Shown piece by piece: positions 1-12,623 of a DNA stretch of 64,000 nucleotides. The translations under genes and the position numbers were made by a program. The DNA is taken from the NCBI GenBank assembly GCA_963781585.1, contig CAWAGQ010000004.1, forward strand, positions 352,001 to 416,000. Direction: 5' to 3'. Position 1 is the stretch's first letter, and every line of letters begins with the position of its first letter. Source of the DNA: an uncultured Gemmatimonadaceae bacterium (GTDB lineage: Bacteria > Gemmatimonadota > Gemmatimonadetes > Gemmatimonadales > Gemmatimonadaceae). A model generated the notes under the pieces. That model was given only the letters and a program-made list of their open reading frames with translations, did no database searches and was not told the origin of the DNA.

Positions 1-870
1 GTTGATATCGTGGGGCGGTGGACCGATGAGCTGGCGCGCAACCCGGATAGCCTCTCGTTCCTTCGGCTGGCTGACGAGCTCCGTCGCCGCCGTGCCCTTC
101 CGGAGGCGCGGACGGTGGCCCTGCGCGGACTCGAACGACATCCGTATCTCGCAGACGCCCACGATATGCTCGCGCGCGTGTATGCCGATGATGGAGAGAC
201 GCAACGCGCGCGCGACGAGTGGGAGATGGCTCTGCGCATCGATCCCGATCATCTGGAATCGCTGAAGGGGCTCGGATTCCTGGCGTTCGCGCGCGGAGAC
301 CTGGCGGGCGCGGAACGGCACCTCCGCCGCGCCCGCTCCCAGGGCGATCCCGATGCCGGACTTGCCACTGCGCATCGACGCGTCATGGAGGCGATGCGCC
401 GGGCGTCGCGCGGGCACCCCGAGGAGTCCGTCCCCCACAACGGGACTGGCACGGCGGCCCGCAACGGTAACGGGTCGCGACCCCGTGCGGCCGCACCACC
501 GAACCGGGCACGCGAACTCTTCGCCCCCCTGCTCGGCGAAGAAGACGGCACGGCGCTGCTCATCGACGCGGACGGCCTCGTCATCGCTGGTGCGTACGTG
601 GACGAAACGGGCCGTGAGATCGGCGACGAAATCGGCGCTGAACTCTCCGGCGTGAGTGACGAGGCGGCGCGAGCCCTGATCCACTTGCGGCTCGGGACCT
701 GGGAATCGCTGCTGATCGAGGCGCAGCATGCCACAGTGGGACTGGCGCCGGCCAGAGACGGCGCCGTGGTACTCGTGGCGGCGGCGCGCGATGCACACGT
801 CGGCCTGGTGCGCCGGCTGCTGATGCAGGCGCGTACTCGTGCGCGGACCTGGATGGCGGGTGCATCGTGA
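1..870 (+). CDS. TPR-repeat protein with C-terminal roadblock/LC7 (MglB-like) domain, 5' partial
   Basis: Frame is open from base 1. TPR-like helices (AHDMLARVYADDG..., EMALRIDPDHLESLKGLG), a low-complexity linker, then a roadblock pattern (ALLIDADGLVIAG...LLIEAQHATVGL...VGLVRRLL). Confidence 0.8.
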   Translation, partial: VDIVGRWTDELARNPDSLSFLRLADELRRRRALPEARTVALRGLERHPYLADAHDMLARVYADDGETQRARDEWEMALRIDPDHLESLKGLGFLAFARGDLAGAERHLRRARSQGDPDAGLATAHRRVMEAMRRASRGHPEESVPHNGTGTAARNGNGSRPRAAAPPNRARELFAPLLGEEDGTALLIDADGLVIAGAYVDETGREIGDEIGAELSGVSDEAARALIHLRLGTWESLLIEAQHATVGLAPARDGAVVLVAAARDAHVGLVRRLLMQARTRARTWMAGAS

Positions 871-1214
871 GCGGACCCTTCGACGCCATGCTGTCCGAGC
901 TCGCGCGAGTGCGAGGCGTGCGCGCAGCCCTGCTGGCCACCGAGAGCGACGGGCTCGCGGCGGCAGGGATTGCGGCAACAGGGGTGCCCGAAGACGCGCT
1001 GGCCGCGTTTGGCATGGCGCTCCTGCGGCGGGCGCGGTTGGCGAACGAAGCGGCGGGATATGGCGCAACGCTGTTCGTGGCGCTGGATGCCGAGCACGGG
1101 CGGCTGCTTGTCGCCGCCCGCGGCGACCTCGCGATCGTAGTTCTGGCGGAGCGCGACGCCGGCACCGGTCTGGTGCGCATCGCCATGCTGCGTGCGATGA
1201 GCGGACTCCCGTGA
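867..1214 (+). CDS. Roadblock/LC7 domain protein
   Basis: 115 aa with GVRAALLATESDGL...LAIVVLAERDAGTGLVRIAM, typical of roadblock proteins. GTGA overlap with the upstream gene. Confidence 0.8.
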   Translation: MSGPFDAMLSELARVRGVRAALLATESDGLAAAGIAATGVPEDALAAFGMALLRRARLANEAAGYGATLFVALDAEHGRLLVAARGDLAIVVLAERDAGTGLVRIAMLRAMSGLP

Positions 1215-1666
1215 GCACGACCATGACCACCTTCACGGAACCCCTCCACGCGTTCGCCCACGATGCGCGGGTGCGGCTGGCCCTGGTGCTCGAATCCAGT
1301 GGACAGGTGCTCGCGCAGCACGGTTTCACACGGTCACTCGACGTCATGACCGCCTGTTCGCTTGCCGCAGCCATCCATGCCTCGGCTGCCGAGCTTGGTC
1401 GCGAACTCGGTGGGACAGCGTTCGGCCCGCTGCATCACGCCGGCGACGCGCGTCAGCTCTTTCTGGCGCCGGTCCTGTGCGGCGGCCGGACAATCCTGCT
1501 GCTGGCCGTGTTCGACGGGGCGAGCTCCCTCGGCATGGTCCGGCTGTTCTGGGCAGAGTTCGCACACCGCGTGGGCGATGCCATGGCGCCCCGGGCACGC
1601 GTCCAGGCCACGGAATTCGAGCGCGACCTCGAACACAACCTCGACGCGCTGTTCGGCAGGGTTTGA
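1211..1666 (+). CDS. mglB: MglB-like roadblock protein (putative GAP of MglA)
   Basis: LVLESSGQVLAQHG...LAAAIHASAAELGRELG...LLAVFDGASSLGMVRL resembles MglB and lies directly upstream of mglA. Start is GTG 1211 or ATG 1223. Confidence 0.75.
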   Translation: MSTTMTTFTEPLHAFAHDARVRLALVLESSGQVLAQHGFTRSLDVMTACSLAAAIHASAAELGRELGGTAFGPLHHAGDARQLFLAPVLCGGRTILLLAVFDGASSLGMVRLFWAEFAHRVGDAMAPRARVQATEFERDLEHNLDALFGRV

Positions 1667-1668
1667 CG

Positions 1669-2274
1669 ATGCCGGTCGTCAACTATCCGTCGCGCGAAAT
1701 TACCTGCAAGATCGTCTACTACGGGCCGGGACGTTCGGGCAAGACCACCAACCTGCAGTACATCCACACGCGGGTTCCGGAGGACCGGCGCGGCAGGATG
1801 GTCTCGGTGGCCACGCAGGGCGATCGCACGCTGTTCTTCGATTTTCTTCCGCTCGATCTGGGGAGCATCTCGGGCTTCACGACGCGATTCCAGCTATACA
1901 CCGTTCCGGGCCAGGTGTATTACCGGTCCACCCGTCGCCTGGTGCTGCGTGGCGCGGACGGCGTGGTGTTCGTCGCCGATAGCCAGCGCCGCCAACTCGA
2001 GGAGAATGTCGAGAGCCTCCGCGACCTGCACGAGTTGCTGGCCGAGCAGGACGTGGACCCGCGGAGCCTGCCTCTGGTCCTCCAGTACAACAAACAGGAC
2101 TTGCCACGGGATCTCATCCTGAACGCCGGCGAACTGGACGAGGCGCTCAATTTCCGGAGCGCGCCGAGCTTTGCGGCCGACGCCCTCGGTGGTGCCGGCG
2201 TCTTCGAAACCCTTCGCCGCATGTCCGAGCTGGTGCTGCGACGCCTCAGCGCGCCTGCAGCAGCCGGGAGATAG
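1669..2274 (+). CDS. mglA: MglA-family small Ras-like GTPase
   Basis: KIVYYGPGRSGKTTNL (G1), DRTLFFDF (G2 with intrinsic Arg), QLYTVPGQ (MglA-type G3), QYNKQD (G4). Confidence 0.93.
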   Translation: MPVVNYPSREITCKIVYYGPGRSGKTTNLQYIHTRVPEDRRGRMVSVATQGDRTLFFDFLPLDLGSISGFTTRFQLYTVPGQVYYRSTRRLVLRGADGVVFVADSQRRQLEENVESLRDLHELLAEQDVDPRSLPLVLQYNKQDLPRDLILNAGELDEALNFRSAPSFAADALGGAGVFETLRRMSELVLRRLSAPAAAGR

Positions 2275-2277
2275 CAC

Positions 2278-4068
2278 GTGATCGACGGCCGCTTTCGCTT
2301 CGACAACTTCATCGTCGGCGCGTCCAATCGCCTGGCGGTGTCGGCGGCGCGCGCGGTGGCCGAAACGCCCGGCGTGGTCTACAACCCGCTGGTCATCTAC
2401 AGCGCGTCCGGCCTGGGAAAGACGCACCTGCTGGCCGCGCTTGGCTACGCCACGCGCGAACTGCACCCCGAGCGCGACGTGGAGTACCTGACGCTCGAAC
2501 GCTTCGTGGACGAACTGCATGCCGCGGTCGCCAGCGGACGCCCCGATGCCCAGTTGCGGCGCTACCAGCACGTCCAGACGCTGCTGCTGGACGACGTGCA
2601 GTTTCTCACCGGACGGGTCGAGACGCAGACGGAACTCCTCCGCATCTTCAACGCGGTTCAGGAGAATGGCGGACAGATCGTGATGACGAGCGATCGGCCG
2701 CCGGCGGAGATCGGCGACGTCGATGCGCGGCTCCTGAGCCGGATGTCGGGCGGCCTGATCGTCGACATCGGCGAACCGGAGTACGAGACCCGGGTCGCGA
2801 TTCTCCGTCACAAGTGCGCCGAGCGAGGGCTGACCTTTGTGCCCGGTGTACTCGAGCAGCTGGCGAGCGCGCCGGCCGGGAGCGTGCGCGAACTCCAGGG
2901 GGCCCTGAATCGGGTTGCGGCACAGCAGTCCATCAGCGACGCGCCGCTCGGGATTCAGGACGTGCGCGTTGCCCTGGCAGGACGGAGCGAAGAGGGACCG
3001 GACGATGAGTACCAGAGCTTCCTGAACGAGGTCGCGGCGACAGTATCGCTGACGGTCGATCCGTGGCGCATCCGGCTGGGAGAAATGGTGTCTCGCTGGA
3101 GCGGCGAAGGGTTTCAGACCACGATGCTGGAGCGTGCGATGGCGGCCAGCGAGGCCCCCGATATCGATGCGCTCGATGCCCGGTTCGCCGCGGCCGCTGC
3201 GCGACTACGGGCGCTCGAAGCCGAAGCGGCCCGTCTCGATCCGAAGCTCATCGAGCTGGCGGCCTTTCGCGATCCCGAACGGGTGGCCGACGCCGAGACG
3301 GTCGTGCTGCGCGCGCTGGCCGCCTACGATCCGCCCCCCGGCCCCGACCGGCGCTTCGGCATCGAACAGTTCGTCGTGGGGGAGCGCAATCGCCTCGCGC
3401 TGCGCGGCGCGGCGGAAGTGATCGCCGTGCCGGGGGCGCGGTACAATCCGCTCTACATCCACGGCGCCACGAGTTCCGGCAAGACACACCTCCTGCACGC
3501 CATCGGCAACGCGCTGGCGGCGCGCGACGGCGGCGGGTGGACGGTCGCCTGTGTCACGGCCCAGCAGTTCACCGATGGACTGATCGAAGCCATCCAGGAG
3601 GCCGAGCTCGAGCGCTGGCGCATGCGGTACCGGGCGGTCGACGCGCTGCTGATCGATGACGCCCAGGCGCTCAGCGGCAAGGAGCGGTCGCAGGACGAGC
3701 TCTTCCATCTCTTCAACGCCTTTCATGACAGCGGCAAGCAGATCGTGCTCGCCGCGGACGTGGCGCCGTCCCAGCTGGTGGAGCTTGCGGCCCGGCTGCG
3801 CTCCCGCTTCGAGGGGGGGCTGGTGGTCGAGCTGGGTCGCGTGTCGCGGGCCGAGCGGGTGGCGCGCTACACGCCCGTCCCTATCGGTGCGGAGGCGGCC
3901 GCCCCCACCATCGACGCCTGGTTCGAAGAGGCGGTCGAGTCACCGCCCGATGCACTGGCCAGCCAGCTCGAGTCGTTAGGCGGCGTCGACTTCTTCTTCC
4001 TCGATCCCGAGAAGTGCATCACCGAATGGCCGGGTGTGGACGGACGCATCATCGAGGAGCTTCGCTGA
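2278..4068 (+). CDS. DnaA/Hda-family protein with two tandem DnaA-like AAA+ modules and no DnaA domain IV
   Basis: Two copies of the DnaA domain III pattern: FDNFIVGASNRLA...YNPLVIYSASGLGKTHLL...LLLDDVQFL...RLLSRMSGGL and FVVGERNRLA...YNPLYIHGATSSGKTHLL...LLIDDAQAL...RLRSRFEGGL. Confidence 0.88.
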   Translation: MIDGRFRFDNFIVGASNRLAVSAARAVAETPGVVYNPLVIYSASGLGKTHLLAALGYATRELHPERDVEYLTLERFVDELHAAVASGRPDAQLRRYQHVQTLLLDDVQFLTGRVETQTELLRIFNAVQENGGQIVMTSDRPPAEIGDVDARLLSRMSGGLIVDIGEPEYETRVAILRHKCAERGLTFVPGVLEQLASAPAGSVRELQGALNRVAAQQSISDAPLGIQDVRVALAGRSEEGPDDEYQSFLNEVAATVSLTVDPWRIRLGEMVSRWSGEGFQTTMLERAMAASEAPDIDALDARFAAAAARLRALEAEAARLDPKLIELAAFRDPERVADAETVVLRALAAYDPPPGPDRRFGIEQFVVGERNRLALRGAAEVIAVPGARYNPLYIHGATSSGKTHLLHAIGNALAARDGGGWTVACVTAQQFTDGLIEAIQEAELERWRMRYRAVDALLIDDAQALSGKERSQDELFHLFNAFHDSGKQIVLAADVAPSQLVELAARLRSRFEGGLVVELGRVSRAERVARYTPVPIGAEAAAPTIDAWFEEAVESPPDALASQLESLGGVDFFFLDPEKCITEWPGVDGRIIEELR

Positions 4069-5684
4069 TGGCCATCCGCGGCAGTCTCCGGGAAGCGAGC
4101 CTCCCCGATGTCCTCCAGCTGCTCGCCATGGGGAAGAAGACCGGCTGCCTCTCGGTCACCCACCGTCAGAGCTTCGGGACGATCTTCTTCGACAGTGGAC
4201 GCATCTGCTACGCCTCGATCGTCAACCGGCGTGACCGGCTCGGCGATCTGCTCCTGAAGCACGGCCTGATCACCCGTCCGCAGCTCGACGCCGCCGTCGC
4301 CGAACAAGTCGACCGACCCGACCGGCGTCTCGGTGAGATCCTCATCGCCGACGGCCTCCTGCAACCCGAGCAGTTGCGGGAGTACATCACCCATCAGATC
4401 CAGGAAGCAGTCTACTTCCTGTTCACCTGGACGCAGGGGACGTTCAGCTTCGAGCCCGATGTGCGCCCCGACACCCGGGACCTCCTGGTGTCGATCGGCC
4501 CCGAGTCCCTGCTGCTCGAGGGAGCGAGACGGGTGGACGAATGGAGTCTGATCGAAAAGAAGATTACCAGCTTCGATCTCATCTTCGCCCTCGATCGCGA
4601 GCACCTGACCGAAAGCCACGTCGACCTGACGCCCGAACAGGAGATTCTCGTTCCGCTCCTCGACGGACAGCGCGATGTCAGCGCGCTCACGGAAGAAACC
4701 GGGATGGACGACTTCGAGGTGGGCAAGGCGCTGTTCGGACTCCTCTCTGCCGGTTTCCTGCATCGCGCGGGACGCAGCACCGGCCCCGAGACCGTTGCCG
4801 GCGAGTCCCGCATCCTCGAGCACCGCAACCTCGGAGTCGCGTTCTACAGGACAGGCATGTACGACGAGGCGCTCCGCGAGTTCCGGCGGGTCGTCGAGCT
4901 GCAGCCGGGGGACCAGGTCGCAGAATTCCACATCGGTCTGGTGGCGCTGCGCCAGGACCGCCTGGATGACGCGATCCGCACATTTCGCGCGATTGGCGCT
5001 CGTGAGGCGGCACCGGCCTCGGTGTTCGTCAATCTCGCCCACGCCCTCGAGCGGTCGGGTCGATACGACGAGGCCCGCGCCGCGCTGGACGACGCGGAGC
5101 GGTTGCAGCCGCAGGAGCCGATGAGCGAGCTCGCACACGGCGTGCTGTCGTTGCGCCGGGGCGATGTGGAGGGCGCAGATCGACACCTGCAGTGTGCCGC
5201 CGAACGGTGGGGCGGGAAGGCGCGACCGGCAGCATGGTTTCACTACGCCGGTCTGGTGGCGGCGCTGCGCGGCGAGCTCGATCGAGCCACGGAGGTTCTG
5301 GAGCACGGGGTGGTGGCGTATCCACACGTCGCCGCACTGTACAACAACCTGTCCGTTGCCCTGGAGCGTCGCGGGCGCTACGCGGAAGCGTTGGCGGCGG
5401 CAGAGCGGGGGAGCGTGGAAGATCCGGCGCTGCCGCAGCTCCACAAGAACCTCGGCGATCTGCAGTACCGCGCCGGGCACTACGACGAGGCGCTCGACGC
5501 CTATCAGCGTGCGGTCCGGTACGACCCGGAGCTGGGCGGCGACGTCCATCTGAAGATGGGGAACGTGCGGTATCGACGCGGCGAGCGCGACGATGCGATG
5601 CGCTGCTGGGAGCGTTCGCTCTCGCTTGCGCCGGACAATCCCATGGCGAGGAACAACCTCGAGACCGCGCGACGGCTGACGTGA
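4068..5684 (+). CDS. DUF4388 (PatA-N-like) + MshEN + TPR-repeat protein
   Basis: N-terminal MAIRGSLREASLPDVLQLLAMGKKTGCL...WTQGTFSF (DUF4388), two RLGxxLLxxGL motifs, and multiple C-terminal TPRs. TGATG coupling to the upstream gene. Confidence 0.85.
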   Translation: MAIRGSLREASLPDVLQLLAMGKKTGCLSVTHRQSFGTIFFDSGRICYASIVNRRDRLGDLLLKHGLITRPQLDAAVAEQVDRPDRRLGEILIADGLLQPEQLREYITHQIQEAVYFLFTWTQGTFSFEPDVRPDTRDLLVSIGPESLLLEGARRVDEWSLIEKKITSFDLIFALDREHLTESHVDLTPEQEILVPLLDGQRDVSALTEETGMDDFEVGKALFGLLSAGFLHRAGRSTGPETVAGESRILEHRNLGVAFYRTGMYDEALREFRRVVELQPGDQVAEFHIGLVALRQDRLDDAIRTFRAIGAREAAPASVFVNLAHALERSGRYDEARAALDDAERLQPQEPMSELAHGVLSLRRGDVEGADRHLQCAAERWGGKARPAAWFHYAGLVAALRGELDRATEVLEHGVVAYPHVAALYNNLSVALERRGRYAEALAAAERGSVEDPALPQLHKNLGDLQYRAGHYDEALDAYQRAVRYDPELGGDVHLKMGNVRYRRGERDDAMRCWERSLSLAPDNPMARNNLETARRLT

Positions 5685-6196
5685 CGACCCGGACCGCCAC
5701 TCCTGCCGACGCCGCAGCGGGCGCCGAGATCGTGGTCAACGTCGCCGACTTCGGCGTGGCGCGCGAGCACGGCGTGCTCGCGACGTCAGGACTGGGATCG
5801 TGCGTGGCGATCATCATCTGCGATCGCATCGCACGGGTCGCGGCCATGGCGCACATTCTGCTTCCGGAACCGGACTTCCGTCGAGGGTCGCCCAATCCGG
5901 CAAAGTACCCGCAGACGGCCGTGCCGATGCTGCTCGACGAAATGCACCGGCTGGGCGCGATGGGGCCCTTCGAAGCGAAGCTGGCCGGAGGCGCAAGCAT
6001 GTTCGGCGCCCTGCTCGCAAGCGGCGTGAACATGGGTGAGCGCAACGTCGAGGCGTCGCGCCGGGCATTGGCGGATGCGCGCATCGCGCTGGTGGCCGAA
6101 GACGTGGGCGGAGGTCATGGACGGAGCGTGTTCGTGGACGTCGCGTCGGGGCGCGTGCGGGTGAGTTCTCTCCAGCGGGGCGACCGTGTCCTCTGA
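5681..6196 (+). CDS. cheD: Chemoreceptor glutamine deamidase CheD
   Basis: GLGSCVA (catalytic Cys), MAHILLP (His), AKLAGGASMF, GERNVEA, EDVGGGHGR. Confidence 0.92.
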   Translation: MTTRTATPADAAAGAEIVVNVADFGVAREHGVLATSGLGSCVAIIICDRIARVAAMAHILLPEPDFRRGSPNPAKYPQTAVPMLLDEMHRLGAMGPFEAKLAGGASMFGALLASGVNMGERNVEASRRALADARIALVAEDVGGGHGRSVFVDVASGRVRVSSLQRGDRVL

Positions 6197-7286
6197 ACGC
6201 CGCACGGTGCTGGTCGTCGACGACAGCGCGCTCGTCTGCCGCGTGGTCGCCGACCTGATCGAGGCCAGTGCCGACTTCCGCGTGGCCGGCATCGCCCGTG
6301 ACGGCTTGGACGCCATTCGCAAGCTGCACAGCCTCGAGCCCGACCTCGTCACGCTCGACGTGCAGATGCCGGATCTCGACGGCCTGCAGACACTCGGCTA
6401 CATCATGAGCGAGGCGCCGCGACCCGTGATCATGCTCAGCGCGCTGGATTCGCTGGGCGGTGCGGATCTGACCATCAGGGCGCTCGAGCTGGGTGCGGTG
6501 GATTTCGTGCGCAAGACCGGGCCTGACGACGCGCTCGATCCGAGAACGCTCCGCGATCGTCTGCTTCGGGCGCTCCGGGGGGCGCGAAACGTGAACCTCC
6601 GCGCCGCATCGGTGCTGGCCCGGCCGCTCGCCGCCCGCAAGTCCGCGCGCCCGGGTGAGAAGCCCGCCACTCATGTCGTGGCGATCGCCGCGTCCACCGG
6701 AGGGCCGCGGGCGCTCGCCGAAATACTGCCGGCGCTTCCCGGAGACCTCGGTGCGGCGGTTCTGGTGGTGCAGCACATGCCGGCCGGGTTCACTGAGAGC
6801 CTGGCGCGCCGCCTCGACCGTCTCGCATCACTTGCCGTGGGCGAGGCGGTAGACGGGGAGGTCCCGCTTGCCGGCCATGCCTACATCGCGCCGGGGGGCC
6901 GCCATCTGACGCTCAGTCGTGACGGTGGGGCCACGCGCCTGGCGGTCGGCGCCGGTGCCGCTGTTCGCGGAGCGCGACCGTCGGCCGACCTGCTGTTCGA
7001 CTCGGTCGCCGAACATCTCAGGGCGGCGGCGGTGGGTGTGGTACTCACCGGGATGGGGCACGACGGCGCCGCGGGCCTGAAGCGCATGCGTGGCGCGGGC
7101 GCCTACGCCCTCGTTCAGGATCGCGGGACCTCCACCGTATACGGCATGCCGATGACGGCGCTCGCACACGCCGGTGCAGATCGGGTGGTGCCGCTGTCGG
7201 AGATGGCGCCCGCGATCCTGGCCGCCCTGGAGGCGCGGGGAATGACGCGCCGCGATGTGACCACCGAAGATCCGATTCTGTCCTGA
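6186..7286 (+). CDS. cheB: Chemotaxis response regulator/methylesterase CheB
   Basis: Receiver domain (VVDDS, TLDVQMP, FVRK) plus esterase triad motifs ASTGG, VQHMP, LTGMGHDG. Confidence 0.95.
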   Translation: MSSERRTVLVVDDSALVCRVVADLIEASADFRVAGIARDGLDAIRKLHSLEPDLVTLDVQMPDLDGLQTLGYIMSEAPRPVIMLSALDSLGGADLTIRALELGAVDFVRKTGPDDALDPRTLRDRLLRALRGARNVNLRAASVLARPLAARKSARPGEKPATHVVAIAASTGGPRALAEILPALPGDLGAAVLVVQHMPAGFTESLARRLDRLASLAVGEAVDGEVPLAGHAYIAPGGRHLTLSRDGGATRLAVGAGAAVRGARPSADLLFDSVAEHLRAAAVGVVLTGMGHDGAAGLKRMRGAGAYALVQDRGTSTVYGMPMTALAHAGADRVVPLSEMAPAILAALEARGMTRRDVTTEDPILS

Positions 7287-7355
7287 GTAGGGAGCGGGGG
7301 TGGGTCCGGATCTCCGGTTCACCACCCCGCGCCTTCGTATCCGATCCACCTGTCG

Positions 7356-7886
7356 ATGCCCGAATCCGACGTGCTCCAGAACGTTGCTCCGCCAGCCCCG
7401 CCGCATGACGCATCGCCGCTGCGTTTTCGCGAGCGCGTGCGGCAGCGCATCGGCACGGCCGACCTTCTGCTCTTCCGGGTGGGACGGGAGGGGTTCGGAA
7501 TCGAGATTCGCGCGGTGGACGAAGTAGTGGAGTCGCCGCGACTGCGGGTTCTTCCCGATGCCCCGGCGACGCTGCTCGGCGTATTCACGCTGCGCGAGCA
7601 GCTGCTCCCGCTGTACGCGGCATCGCTGGTGCTCGGTCAGGAAGCCGAGGCGCCGGACCTGGCACTCGTCATGCGCAGCGGATTGCGGCGGGTGGGGCTG
7701 GCGGTGGACGACGTGGAAGAAGTTGTGGCCGTTTCCATGACCGACCTGCGGGATCCGCCTCCGGGAATTGGCGACGACGATGTTGTGGCCGGACTGGTCT
7801 GGCGCGATGGCCGGATCATCACCGTGCTCGATGCCCGCGCCCTGGTTGCGGCATGCGCCTCGGTGGCGCATCCGGCGGTTCCATGA
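7356..7886 (+). CDS. cheW: CheW-like coupling protein
   Basis: LLFRVGREGFGIEIRAVDEV, LLGVFTLREQLLP, VGLAVDDVEEV, ITVLD. Confidence 0.85.
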   Translation: MPESDVLQNVAPPAPPHDASPLRFRERVRQRIGTADLLLFRVGREGFGIEIRAVDEVVESPRLRVLPDAPATLLGVFTLREQLLPLYAASLVLGQEAEAPDLALVMRSGLRRVGLAVDDVEEVVAVSMTDLRDPPPGIGDDDVVAGLVWRDGRIITVLDARALVAACASVAHPAVP

Positions 7887-8359
7887 CCACCATGACCGGC
7901 AGCTCGCGCATCATCACGTTCCGTCTCGGCGACGATCTGTTCGCGGCCGACATCTTCGCCGTGGAGCGGGTGCTGCGATACGACGCGCCCCGGGCAATCC
8001 CGAACGTACCCGACTGGATCCGCGGCGTGATCGAGTACCAGGGGCGCGTCGTGCCGGTCGTGGACCTCCGGCGTCGCTTCGGCCTTCCCGAGGCCGACGT
8101 TGGTCCGCAGGCCCGGATGCTGGTCCTCTCGTCAGGCGGGGAGTGGGTGGCGGTCATCGTCGACCTGGTTCTCGACGTGCGGCCACTCGAGGAGGCGGCA
8201 CTGTCGCCGCCGCCCGCGCTGTTCCGCGGGCTGGCCGGCGAATACCTGCGGGGTCTGACGCGTCGGGGAGAGTCGCTGGTGGTTGTGCTGGACGTGGACC
8301 GCCTGCTCTCCAGTCAGGACCGGCTGGTGCTGGCGCCCGCCCGGGGGGCGGATGCCTGA
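7883..8359 (+). CDS. cheW: CheW-like coupling protein
   Basis: IITFRLGDDLFAADI, IPNVPDWIRGVIEYQGRVVPVVDLRRRFG, VVVLDVDRLL. Confidence 0.92.
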   Translation: MTTMTGSSRIITFRLGDDLFAADIFAVERVLRYDAPRAIPNVPDWIRGVIEYQGRVVPVVDLRRRFGLPEADVGPQARMLVLSSGGEWVAVIVDLVLDVRPLEEAALSPPPALFRGLAGEYLRGLTRRGESLVVVLDVDRLLSSQDRLVLAPARGADA

Positions 8360-9233
8360 TCCGGCGCGAGCGTCCCTTCGTCTCCGGTTCGAGGGCATCG
8401 GGCAGGCCCTCGACGCACCCGGTGCATCCGGCCACAAGGCCGAGCTCAAGGCCGAGATCATCGCCCTCTTCAAGGCGGTGGATCGCGAGGTGGCCGACCT
8501 CGCGGTCCTGCGCGACGAAGTAAAGGGTCTGGTTACGCGGTGGAAGGCGCTGGACGGGGATGAGGCCGAAGCCAGTCGGGGCGCGGAACCCGCCCCGCCG
8601 CCGGCGGCGCCGACCGTGTCGGGACCCACCCGGGCCGATCACCTGAACGCGTCGAGCCACATCGAGAAGGGGTGGAGCCTCATTTCGCTGGGCGACTGCG
8701 CATCGGCCGAACAGGCGCTGCACAAGGCGCTGTCGCTGGTGCCTAACGACTTGCAGGCCGAGTCGTTGCTGGGATGGGCGCAGATGCTGCAGGGCAAGTA
8801 CGACGACGCGCTGCTCAACTTCCAGCAGGTCCTGTGTCAGGAGCCGGCCAATGCCCTGGCTCGAGTGAACGTGGGGTACATCTGCCTGAAGAAGGGCATC
8901 TTCGGCGAAGCAATCGAGCACCTGTCGCGCACCATCCGCCTCGACAACGATCGGAAAGCGACGCTCTACGCCCACTACTACCTGGGCCTGCTGTACCTGG
9001 AACGTGAGATGTTCGACGATGCCGAGAGCTTCCTGCGCAAGGCCATCTCGCTTGGACCCAACCTGGTGGAAGCGTACTACGAGCTCGGGCGCGTGCTCTG
9101 GTTCGCGGGCAGCGCCGAGGCCGCGTCGCAGGCGTGGCGCGACGGCGTGTCGGCGAACAAGTTCAGTCCATGGGGGAAGCGCTGCGCCGAGATGCTGCGG
9201 GAAGTCGAAGCCGGCGGCGTGCTCACGCGCTGA
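8352..9233 (+). CDS. Tetratricopeptide repeat protein
   Basis: N-terminal coiled segment, Pro/Ala linker, then about 5 TPR units (e.g. AHYYLGLLYLEREMFDDAESFLRKAISLGPNLVEAYYELG). Confidence 0.85.
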   Translation: MPDPARASLRLRFEGIGQALDAPGASGHKAELKAEIIALFKAVDREVADLAVLRDEVKGLVTRWKALDGDEAEASRGAEPAPPPAAPTVSGPTRADHLNASSHIEKGWSLISLGDCASAEQALHKALSLVPNDLQAESLLGWAQMLQGKYDDALLNFQQVLCQEPANALARVNVGYICLKKGIFGEAIEHLSRTIRLDNDRKATLYAHYYLGLLYLEREMFDDAESFLRKAISLGPNLVEAYYELGRVLWFAGSAEAASQAWRDGVSANKFSPWGKRCAEMLREVEAGGVLTR

Positions 9234-10192
9234 TCCTCGCCGGTGCGGTCGCCCTCGCGGCCGCGCCGCCCGGAGCCGCCCAGCTCCCGTTAGGCATGCA
9301 GCAGGTGACGGCCGGCCGGTTTACCGTCGCGGCCGAGCCGGGAGACATGCAGCTGGCGCGGGCGCTGCTCGGACGGGCCACCGCCAGGGATACGTTCCCG
9401 TGGCTGCCGCGCCCGCACGAGCCGGTCCTGATCATCGTCGCCCCCGACCGCCGCACCTTCCGGGCACTGGTCGGGCCGGCGGCTCCCGAATACGGCGCCG
9501 CCATCGCCATCCCGGCCGAGCGGCGCATCGTCATGCAGGGCCACAACGCGGCGTCGGATGCCGGTGATCCGCTCGAGGTGCTCCGTCACGAGCTCGCACA
9601 CCTGGCGCTCCACGAGCGGCTGGACAACATCCCGCCTCGATGGTTCGACGAGGGGTACGCGTCGGTGGCGGCCGGTGAGTGGGGTCGCGACGAGGTACTG
9701 GCCACGAATGTTGCGCTTGCCTTGCGCGGCATGCCCTCGCTCGATGCGCTCGACGCACAGTTCGCGGGAGGCGCCGGACAGGCGACCGCCGCCTATGCGC
9801 TGGCACACCGTGCGGTCGTGGAACTCGCGGCGCTCGATCCCGAGCGTGGCCTGTCGCTGTTCTTCGACTATTGGCGCCAATCGGGAGACTTCGACGCCGC
9901 CATTCGTCAGGCATTCGGCATTACCGAATCGGACTTCGTGCAACGCTGGCGCGACCACACGCGCCGTCGCTATGGCGGCCTGGCGCTGTTCGCGGATCTC
10001 ACGATCGGTGCGCTCGTGCTGCTCTTCGTCATCACACCGTTGTACCTCGTGCGGCGCGCCCGAGACCGCGCGCGTCTGGAACGCATGGCGGACACGGAAG
10101 CGCGGGTGGAGCAGCAGGCCCGCGATACTGCCATCGAGGAGCTTCTGCGGAGCGTTACCCCGCCGTCCAGCGACCGTCGCCCCGACACGTGA
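9170..10192 (+). CDS. Zinc metallopeptidase (peptidase MA/gluzincin-like), exported with C-terminal membrane anchor
   Basis: HELAH motif followed by PRWFDEG, a signal-like segment (LILAGAVALAAAP) and a C-terminal TM (LTIGALVLLFVITPLYLV). Start uncertain (9134, 9170 or later). Confidence 0.75.
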   Translation: MGEALRRDAAGSRSRRRAHALILAGAVALAAAPPGAAQLPLGMQQVTAGRFTVAAEPGDMQLARALLGRATARDTFPWLPRPHEPVLIIVAPDRRTFRALVGPAAPEYGAAIAIPAERRIVMQGHNAASDAGDPLEVLRHELAHLALHERLDNIPPRWFDEGYASVAAGEWGRDEVLATNVALALRGMPSLDALDAQFAGGAGQATAAYALAHRAVVELAALDPERGLSLFFDYWRQSGDFDAAIRQAFGITESDFVQRWRDHTRRRYGGLALFADLTIGALVLLFVITPLYLVRRARDRARLERMADTEARVEQQARDTAIEELLRSVTPPSSDRRPDT

Positions 10193-10227: not shown

Positions 10228-10256
10228 TTGACACATTTTTCCATCCACCCCATACT
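10228..10256 (+). promoter_or_regulatory. Sigma70-type promoter
   Basis: TTGACA (10228-10233), 17 nt, CATACT (10251-10256), upstream of the small ORF and tRNA. Confidence 0.7.
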
Positions 10257-10265
10257 TCGGCGCTT

Positions 10266-10436
10266 ATGGCGTCCGACACCCAGCCGCCGAAACAGCGGCC
10301 GCTTTTGTTTTGGGGGCTCGCGCTGGTCACGATCGTGGCCGGATTCATCGATCTCGCGCGCGGCGGGGAAACCATCGCACCGATCTTGCTGGTAATCGGG
10401 TACTGCATTCTGGTACCGATCGCGATACTCAGGTGA
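10266..10436 (+). CDS. Small two-helix membrane protein (56 aa), DUF3098-like
   Basis: Own translation: MASDTQPPKQRPLLFWGLALVTIVAGFIDLARGGETIAPILLVIGYCILVPIAILR*. Below the ORF track size cutoff. Confidence 0.7.
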   Translation: MASDTQPPKQRPLLFWGLALVTIVAGFIDLARGGETIAPILLVIGYCILVPIAILR

Positions 10437-10531: not shown

Positions 10532-10605
10532 GGGCGAATAGCTCAGTTGGTTAGAGCGCCTGCCTTACACGCAGGAAGTCGGGGGTTCGAGTCCCTCTTC
10601 GCCCA
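10532..10605 (+). tRNA. tRNA-Val (anticodon TAC)
   Basis: Acceptor stem GGGCGAA/TTCGCCC plus A, D arm TAGCTCAGTTGGTTAGAGC, anticodon arm CCTGC-CTTACAC-GCAGG, T loop GGTTCGAGTCC. CCA is not encoded. Confidence 0.96.
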
Positions 10606-12593: not shown

Positions 12594-12623
12594 TTGACGA
12601 ATTGCCGTCTGGGTCGCTAGGTT
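12594..12623 (+). promoter_or_regulatory. Putative dcw operon promoter
   Basis: TTGACG, 18 nt, TAGGTT just upstream of rsmH. Confidence 0.45.

Follow-up and report, generated by a model that had tools for sequence, protein, structure and literature searches.

Gene content and organization of the locus

Gemmatimonadota are abundant in soils and, to our knowledge, signalling in this phylum is almost unstudied. We analyzed a window of 64,000 nucleotides (G000:C4:352001-416000; negative positions lie before it) from the genome of an uncultured Gemmatimonadaceae bacterium (G000, 93.5% complete with 7.2% contamination; other G numbers denote relatives). The window opens inside a string of 18 co-oriented genes that begins 7.5 kb before it and encodes a chemosensory pathway, a second MglA-type GTPase with Roadblock proteins, two PATAN-MshEN-TPR proteins, and a double DnaA-type ATPase, here called dnaA2 (Table 1). 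An earlier note on the window had described twelve of these genes as one operon. All twelve open reading frames (ORFs) are present in the order it gave, every junction it quoted is right, and its domain labels hold by Pfam and NCBIfam profiles. The operon it drew is real but not whole, as the twelve genes form the last two-thirds of the string, whose first six genes, cheW-cheY-cheA-cheC-TPR899-DUF4388a, lie ahead of the window. The 69 nt between cheB and cheW1 are the sole larger gap among the twelve, and the gene overlaps suggest that the string is co-transcribed.

Table 1. Features of the 18-gene string in window coordinates; spacing is counted from the preceding gene (negative, overlap), and domain calls are from Pfam and NCBIfam profiles.
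Feature	Position	Strand	Spacing (nt)	Domain calls and remarks
cheW0	-7503..-7066	+		before window
cheY	-7027..-6665	+		before window
cheA	ends -4569	+		Hpt-P2-dimer-HATPase-CheW; before window
cheC	-4497..-3877	+		before window
TPR899 (899 aa)	-3840..-1141	+		before window
DUF4388a (381 aa)	-1140..5	+		PATAN-MshEN-like-TPR; window holds 3' end (1..5)
TPR-Roadblock protein (TPR-RB, 290 aa)	1..870, start at -2	+		TPR, Robl_LC7
RB2, Roadblock/LC7	867..1214	+	-4	Robl_LC7 (PF03259, 24.2 bits)
RB3, MglB-like Roadblock	1211..1666	+	-4	Robl_LC7; NF052242 27.9 bits, cut-off 200
mglA, MglA paralog (MglA2)	1669..2274	+	+2	Arf/Ras GTPase; G1, intrinsic Arg finger, TVPGQ
dnaA2 module 1	2278..2982	+	+3	Bac_DnaA stretch; complete DnaA-type AAA+; Walker A/B, Arg finger, sensor II; no domain I ahead
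dnaA2 linker (114 aa)	3004..3345	+		all-helical; no Pfam family
dnaA2 module 2	3349..3834	+		Bac_DnaA stretch; DnaA-type AAA+ core; lid and sensor II lost in source lineage
dnaA2 C-terminal motif	3997..4068	+		EK..W.WP....R.IEE; conserved; stands where DnaA has domain IV; modelled with low confidence in the monomer
DUF4388b	4068..5684	+	-1	DUF4388, MshE-type motif, TPRs; PATAN with inserted MshEN double motif (~4236-4397) and C-terminal TPRs
cheD	5681..6196	+	-4	CheD
cheB	6186..7286	+	-11	REC-CheB; receiver and methylesterase
cheW1	7356..7886	+	+69	CheW
cheW2	7883..8359	+	-4	CheW
TPR293 (293 aa)	8352..9233	+	-8	TPR
pepMA, HExxH peptidase MA-like	9134..10192, start uncertain	+		Peptidase_MA_2 29.7 bits, cut-off 32.4; hydrophobic N- and C-terminal stretches; frame overlaps TPR293

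Conservation of the string and reduced loci

Gene order was compared in 20 loci fetched from 40 relatives, which were picked for a tandem-type ATPase match on long contigs; G008, an unpublished genome, contributes one row to the tallies in this study, and no claim depends on G008 alone. The order cheW-Y-A-C-TPR-DUF4388a-TPR/RB-RB2 ... dnaA2-DUF4388b was found in all 20 loci, bar single-gene losses, with RB3-mglA between RB2 and dnaA2 in 19 of them. In 14 of the 19 relatives' loci extending that far, cheR stands after DUF4388b and before cheD. Ten more loci comprised four with the full string (families f4, f5, and f8, which belong to other orders), a short contig with the central part, a degraded full string in G301, and four f7 loci with dnaA2-DUF4388b-peptidase only, one of which has a weak Roadblock match and a split dnaA2. 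Additionally, a profile of the dnaA2 linker, built from the source order and scored on 15 candidates per genome, matched 202 of 301 genomes of the phylum (180/199 other genomes of the same order, 21/60 in f4, f5, f7, and f8, and 0/41 in f6 and f9-f12). Synteny within the phylum thus supports the earlier note's view of an uncharacterised chemosensory-plus-MglA system with a probable reader of cyclic di-GMP (c-di-GMP).

DUF4388b is the one gene present in every reduced locus examined, being kept with dnaA2 in all four f7 loci and with mglA in all four loci without dnaA2 (G012, G072, G017, and G018); a fifth candidate dnaA2-less locus ended within dnaA2 and was uninformative. The MshEN motif is gone from DUF4388b in three of these four loci (2/3 genera). 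This pattern of retention and loss, drawn from few independent losses, points to DUF4388b as a hub and to its MshEN-bearing form as the partner of the ATPase. The peptidase gene stays beside dnaA2-DUF4388b where the Che genes are gone (f7 loci), and in G012 and G072 Che-MglA2 is present and both dnaA2 and pepMA are missing. Such persistence of each half alone would fit two uncoupled modules, Che-MglA2 and dnaA2-DUF4388b-peptidase, housed in one transcription unit. We consider this quite improbable in view of the interleaved genes, with Che genes on both sides, the overlapping junctions, and the retention of DUF4388b with either half.

In G000, G001, and G016, cheR, the module 2 lid, and the RLG motifs of PilB have all been lost (G000:C14:144445-146451 (L220); window 3835-3996; window 5681), and this simplified version probably reflects one lineage event.

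Chemosensory genes, receptors, and pili

The G000 genome contains a single copy each of cheA, cheB, cheC, and cheD, and the operon CheA, which carries no fused receiver, belongs to its sole detected CheA system. The CheA dimer domain was found in 37 of 41 genomes, usually in one copy, and G004 and G017 have neither CheA nor methyl-accepting chemotaxis proteins (MCPs). In most relatives searched, no CheA system other than that of the operon was detected, so the operon probably controls how these bacteria behave on surfaces. The earlier note had called for an upstream check for cheA, cheY, cheC, cheR, and MCP genes: cheW, cheY, cheA, and cheC were found there, whereas cheR has no match anywhere in G000 (likewise in G001, G016, and G037) and the three MCPs of G000 are all encoded elsewhere. 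The arms of these MCPs extend 156, 156, and 181 residues past the tip, which is 44H length, and in one MCP the membrane helices are close together with almost no periplasmic part. The best NCBIfam matches of CheY, CheA, CheC, and CheD were haloarchaeal and Thermotogales models, all below cut-off.

FliM had 0 matches in G000 and was found in seven of the 41 genomes (not found in 34/41). Full-length PilM was identified in 36/41 genomes, PilB exceeded its cut-off in 30/31, and pilB-pilT-pilC and pilMNOQ genes were read in G000, which also has 14 GGDEF matches. With CheA in 37 genomes, FliM in seven (not G000), and pilus genes widespread, the pathway appears mostly non-flagellar.

One alternative is that the operon works like Myxococcus Dif, as a CheC-type, CheR-optional system that senses the state of the surface or of the pili and regulates exopolysaccharide and adhesion, with MglA2 and c-di-GMP feeding into it, instead of steering movement. 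The CheW-CheY-CheA-CheC genes, CheD, and the 44H-length MCPs agree with the Dif components given in PMC4671073, the MCP with little periplasmic part resembles receptors of Dif-like clusters (PMC2577667), and the missing cheR in G000, G001, G016, and G037 recalls the CheR-independence of Dif. On the other hand, no EpsW (NF041866) was found over cut-off in G000 (best 80.5 bits versus 200), the operon holds no MCP, and the accessible parts of the literature on Dif say nothing of MglA, Roadblock, PATAN, or DnaA-type genes. We regard this alternative as unlikely.

One MCP gene (L002:1351-3423; G000:C4:705089-707164) lies among trp and folate genes, and its product has roughly six membrane helices plus a GAF domain. 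Near the second MCP (G000:C14:69568-73273), genes read by eye encode a PspA-like coiled coil, a vWA protein, and a fusion of substrate-binding and OmpA-like parts. In addition, G000:C13:100946-103189 encodes a PilB/GspE-like traffic ATPase whose N-terminus is of the MshEN type and whose C-terminus is a receiver domain; many relatives have a second ATPase of similar length. The C13 protein is a candidate phosphorylation-controlled pilus motor.

MglA2, Roadblock, and PATAN-MshEN-TPR proteins

MglA2 is 48% identical to the canonical recR-linked MglA of G000 (C4:84254), and RB3 is 33% identical to the canonical MglB. The G1 loop, the intrinsic Arg finger, and the TVPGQ G3 motif, which are the sequence features of Group 1 MglA, occur in all 29 aligned MglA sequences (residue roles in part follow PMC4316618). 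By analogy with Myxococcus, a role of the operon in polarity may be supposed.

In DUF4388b, an MshE-type c-di-GMP motif is inserted inside the PATAN domain (NF053729, 53.4 bits, cut-off 38). A figure legend in PMC12943098 describes the MshEN motif as two 24-residue RLGxxL motifs with a short linker, and two RxG motifs were found in 20 of 28 DUF4388b sequences. DUF4388a scored 36.9 bits, below the cut-off, with two RxG motifs in 7/30. DUF4388b is therefore a probable c-di-GMP reader, as judged from its sequence. PATAN, which is the DUF4388 domain, binds PilB1 and PilC in Synechocystis (10.1101/2021.06.11.447907), and MglA-GTP binds the TPRs of SgmX and thereby activates pili (PMC7668184).

Two further roles were considered for DUF4388b. 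As a substitute for a dead c-di-GMP site on PilB it fails generally, since 17 of 27 PilBs keep two RxG motifs; PilBs without any RxG motif were those of G000, G001, G015, and G016 only (27 scored; 2/29 rows lacked the anchor). Homology to SgmX was ruled out, SgmX being a TPR-only protein.

The double DnaA-type ATPase

The dnaA2 product consists of AAA+ module 1, the helical linker, AAA+ module 2, and a conserved tail motif, and its closest named relatives are from Gemmatimonadaceae. Across 35 sequences, module 1 keeps the Walker A Lys (35/35), the Walker B DD (35/35), the Arg finger (34/35), and sensor II (34/35); the corresponding counts for module 2 are 30/35 for the Walker A Lys, 33/35 for the Arg finger, and 18/35 for sensor II, which is absent in G000. 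The model of the whole protein (pLDDT 82.7, pTM 0.42) does not fix the packing of the modules; compared with DnaA domain III (8bv3), it reached a TM score of 0.95 of the target at 42% identity. The protein passes the DnaA profile cut-off (TIGR00362, 441.5 bits as the sum of two stretches), so that it is liable to misannotation as a second initiator. The Hda profile (TIGR03420) gave 161.7 bits, below its cut-off of 194.8, and dnaA2 has two modules versus Hda's one. A tree built from 56 AAA+ rows put all first modules in one clade and all second modules in another (100/99), neither with the full-length DnaA of G000; on this tree they form old clades of their own.

The earlier note had suggested that the system may couple to replication or the cell cycle. 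One conceivable route would be that dnaA2 co-polymerises with DnaA or inactivates it like Hda. The close match of fold and catalytic residues to DnaA domain III, the Arg finger kept in both modules, and the position of the operon between divIVA-ileS-lspA-rluD and dcw in many relatives would favor this view; for a cell-cycle link, the closeness to dcw and divIVA is the basis. Against it, dnaA2 starts at AAA+ (Bacillus subtilis residue 110) without domain I and has no helix-turn-helix of domain IV, judged from the alignment with G000 DnaA and the absence of a Pfam match at E 0.01. Among the residues that read the DnaA-trio, namely Asn187, Ile190, Arg202, Lys222, and Glu228 (PMC10721633), the Asn187 position is D or E in 32/35 module 1 and 26/35 module 2 sequences (N in 91/128 canonical DnaAs) and the Ile190 position is H in 21/35 of module 1; the other three are largely kept. 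The full trio-reading set is accordingly not found. In addition, some near-complete genomes, among them G012, G017, and G018, have no dnaA2, and its constant neighbour is the PATAN-MshEN-TPR gene. With domains I and IV missing, the base-reading Asn mostly acidic, the modules apart from G000 DnaA, and the gene absent from some near-complete genomes, a role as replication initiator is unlikely, and a link to replication or division seems quite improbable. The conserved ATPase residues would instead be compatible with ATP-dependent oligomerisation without origin binding, and dnaA2 looks like a DnaA motor reused for signalling.

Two near-identical full-length dnaA genes occur on separate contigs (G000:C8:335145-335849 and C5:330287-330988; L047 and L048) among other C5/C8 duplicates. 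Given these duplicates and the 7.2% contamination, the pair has the look of a single region present in two strain copies, not of two distinct initiators. DUF4388-like genes were also seen near canonical dnaA in four unrelated loci (L129, L131, L136, and L084).

The linker domain and repeat-DnaA proteins

The linker matches no Pfam family, its model (pLDDT 88) has six helices, and no usable match was obtained in the Atlas. Searched against 1.84 billion representatives, the linker profile matched 402 proteins, and 20 of the best 150 matches are giant repeat proteins carrying the domain 4-22 times. Four multi-repeat proteins have Bac_DnaA (E ~1e-70) after the repeats, three of them with zinc ribbons, and two carry DUF835; a follow-up search added seven relatives, six with Bac_DnaA. 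Named members of the linker cluster are from Thermoplasmata, Bathyarchaeia/Thermoproteota, and Ca. Wallbacteria. Just a single member of the repeat-DnaA form, and that a partial one, bears a name (Thermoplasmata), so the label 'archaeal' is thinly sourced. When a reverse profile of 54 repeats, from proteins first found using the linker profile, was run on the 53,752 ORFs of G000, it retrieved nothing but the linker (E 3.2e-5; the next ORF had 3.1); hhalign of the repeats with the linker gave 98.2% and E 3.5e-14. These results suggest that the dnaA2 linker shares its origin with the tandemly repeated domain of giant proteins, at least some of them from Thermoplasmata, a link that is new and that ties dnaA2 to undescribed archaeal-type DnaA fusions. 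None of the 80 + 49 loci scanned carried the linker repeat.

The AAA+ domains of the repeat proteins keep Asn187 and Ile190 (10/10). They stood apart from modules 1 and 2 in a free tree, and a single clade was not rejected (AU p 0.108). Their N-terminal domain has no Pfam match; hhalign against PATAN gave E 0.013-0.17 with a probability of at most 3% (controls 0.32-0.85), the Atlas returned DUF2226 (0.88) and PatA_N (0.85), and a further search yielded three fragments, so that a PATAN-like N-terminal domain is only a lead. A broader and rather speculative idea, to which we give limited credence, is that the DnaA AAA+ motor was repurposed in both Gemmatimonadota and Thermoplasmata as one 'helical-repeat + DnaA-ATPase' family that switches type IV pilus machines with PATAN-type domains. 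The Gemmatimonadota form would then be a covalent DnaA dimer joining chemosensing, MglA, and c-di-GMP, and the archaeal form would hold the PATAN-like domain, repeats, and ATPase in one chain.

A 626-aa protein, P0136, carries the linker domain and a C-terminal W.W...R.IEE motif and no AAA+ module, which suggests that the linker and the C-terminal motif act together.

Proposed pathway

Taken together, we hold with moderate confidence that the 18-gene string unites the only detected chemosensory pathway with a second MglA switch and likely controls the site or timing of type IV pili, with DUF4388b as the likely hub and dnaA2 as its likely ATP-driven, non-DNA-binding partner. The pathway would be Dif/F1-like, F1 being the class label for the Dif type. 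The encoded CheW, CheA, CheY, CheC, CheD, and CheB would form an array of this type with the three long-armed MCPs encoded elsewhere. Phosphorylated CheY may act on the co-encoded TPR/Roadblock/MglA module, as no FliM was found in G000. If SgmX and the PATAN proteins of cyanobacteria are a guide, DUF4388b would be bound at its TPRs by MglA-GTP, and its PATAN domain would act on PilB/PilC, gated by c-di-GMP at MshEN. The ATPase may oligomerise with ATP like DnaA and serve as scaffold or timer for DUF4388b, which it probably contacts through the linker domain or the C-terminal motif.

Several observations weigh against this reading. Presence of the ATPase was the basis on which the 20 compared loci were picked, and related genomes do not count as independent cases. 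Within the operon no pil gene was noted, and G004, G017, and G018 have pilus genes though they lack CheA and the ATPase, so that co-occurrence with pili does not single out the chemosensory or ATPase genes. G018 retains MshEN in DUF4388b although it has no ATPase. A canonical recR-mglB-mglA pair is encoded elsewhere in G000 and could be the real polarity switch. Finally, no CheA other than that of the operon was found in the flagellated relatives G013, G016, and G035, where the operon may serve flagella. This last point, together with the gliding that MglA also drives in Myxococcus and the second, receiver-bearing traffic ATPase on C13, would suit another polar machine as the output, be it gliding, secretion, or flagella where present. 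Such an output seems improbable to us; FliM was not found in 34 of 41 genomes, although no search was aimed at gliding genes.

Genomic context

The operon is flanked by divIVA-ileS-dksA-lspA-rluD before and by tRNA-Val, a TPR gene, and dcw after (ileS, lspA, rluD, and mraW read by eye). The distance of about 2.4 kb to dcw given earlier is accurate, as mraW starts at 12622, 2430 nt downstream of the operon (by eye, without a profile scan). The interval contains a sigma70-like promoter match at 10228-10256 (one found versus 0.9 expected by chance), tRNA-Val(TAC) at 10532-10605, and a gene for a 585-aa TPR protein. A 56-codon hydrophobic ORF without Pfam match lies between the promoter match and the tRNA (10266-10436). 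Upstream, the order is yggS-divIVA-pnp-ileS-dksA-lspA-rluD (L001:2967-10510; G000:C4:336967-344510), and ileS seems split in the assembly into two overlapping frames (L001:5030-6580 and 6390-8570).

Comparison with known systems

A literature search that mostly did not cover subscription journals turned up no description of the operon or of the tandem ATPase, and neither is mentioned in the accessible parts of PMC3984812 and PMC4546325. MglA/MglB genes beside PATAN genes are a known neighbourhood, including GAU_1409 of Gemmatimonas aurantiaca (PMC4316618, supplementary file 3); DnaA, CheA, and CheW do not occur in that file. Judged from the genes, what is new would be chemosensory control of MglA and pili in a new form, with one undescribed protein family.

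Module 1 of dnaA2 shares the AAA+ fold, Walker A/B, Arg finger, and sensor II with DnaA domain III (8bv3, 8btg, 2z4r, and 2hcb) and Hda (3bos and 5x06), but dnaA2 differs from both in its two modules per chain, new helical linker, lack of domains I and IV, changed trio residues, and own C-terminal motif. Flagellar chemotaxis targets FliM, for which G000 has 0 matches. The Dif and Geobacter Dif-like clusters share CheW, CheY, CheA, CheC, CheD, 44H-length receptors, and a dispensable CheR with the operon (PMC2577667 and PMC4671073). The operon departs from them in its inserted MglA-PATAN-ATPase block and in lacking a clustered MCP, and EpsW was not found over cut-off.

The Frz/MglAB/SgmX system of Myxococcus xanthus is alike in its chemosensory kinase, Group 1-type MglA, Roadblocks, TPRs, and type IVa pili (PMC7668184 and PMC4546325). 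The hybrid CheA-receiver kinase and the clustered MCP of Frz are not found in the operon, whose CheA has P2 and no fused receiver and is accompanied by CheC and CheD. Further differences are that MglA is a second paralog and that three Roadblock domains, two PATAN-MshEN-TPR proteins, and a tandem DnaA-type ATPase are present. Components that are scattered in Myxococcus lie here in one string, a direct inventory of parts for asking how a chemosensory kinase communicates with MglA.

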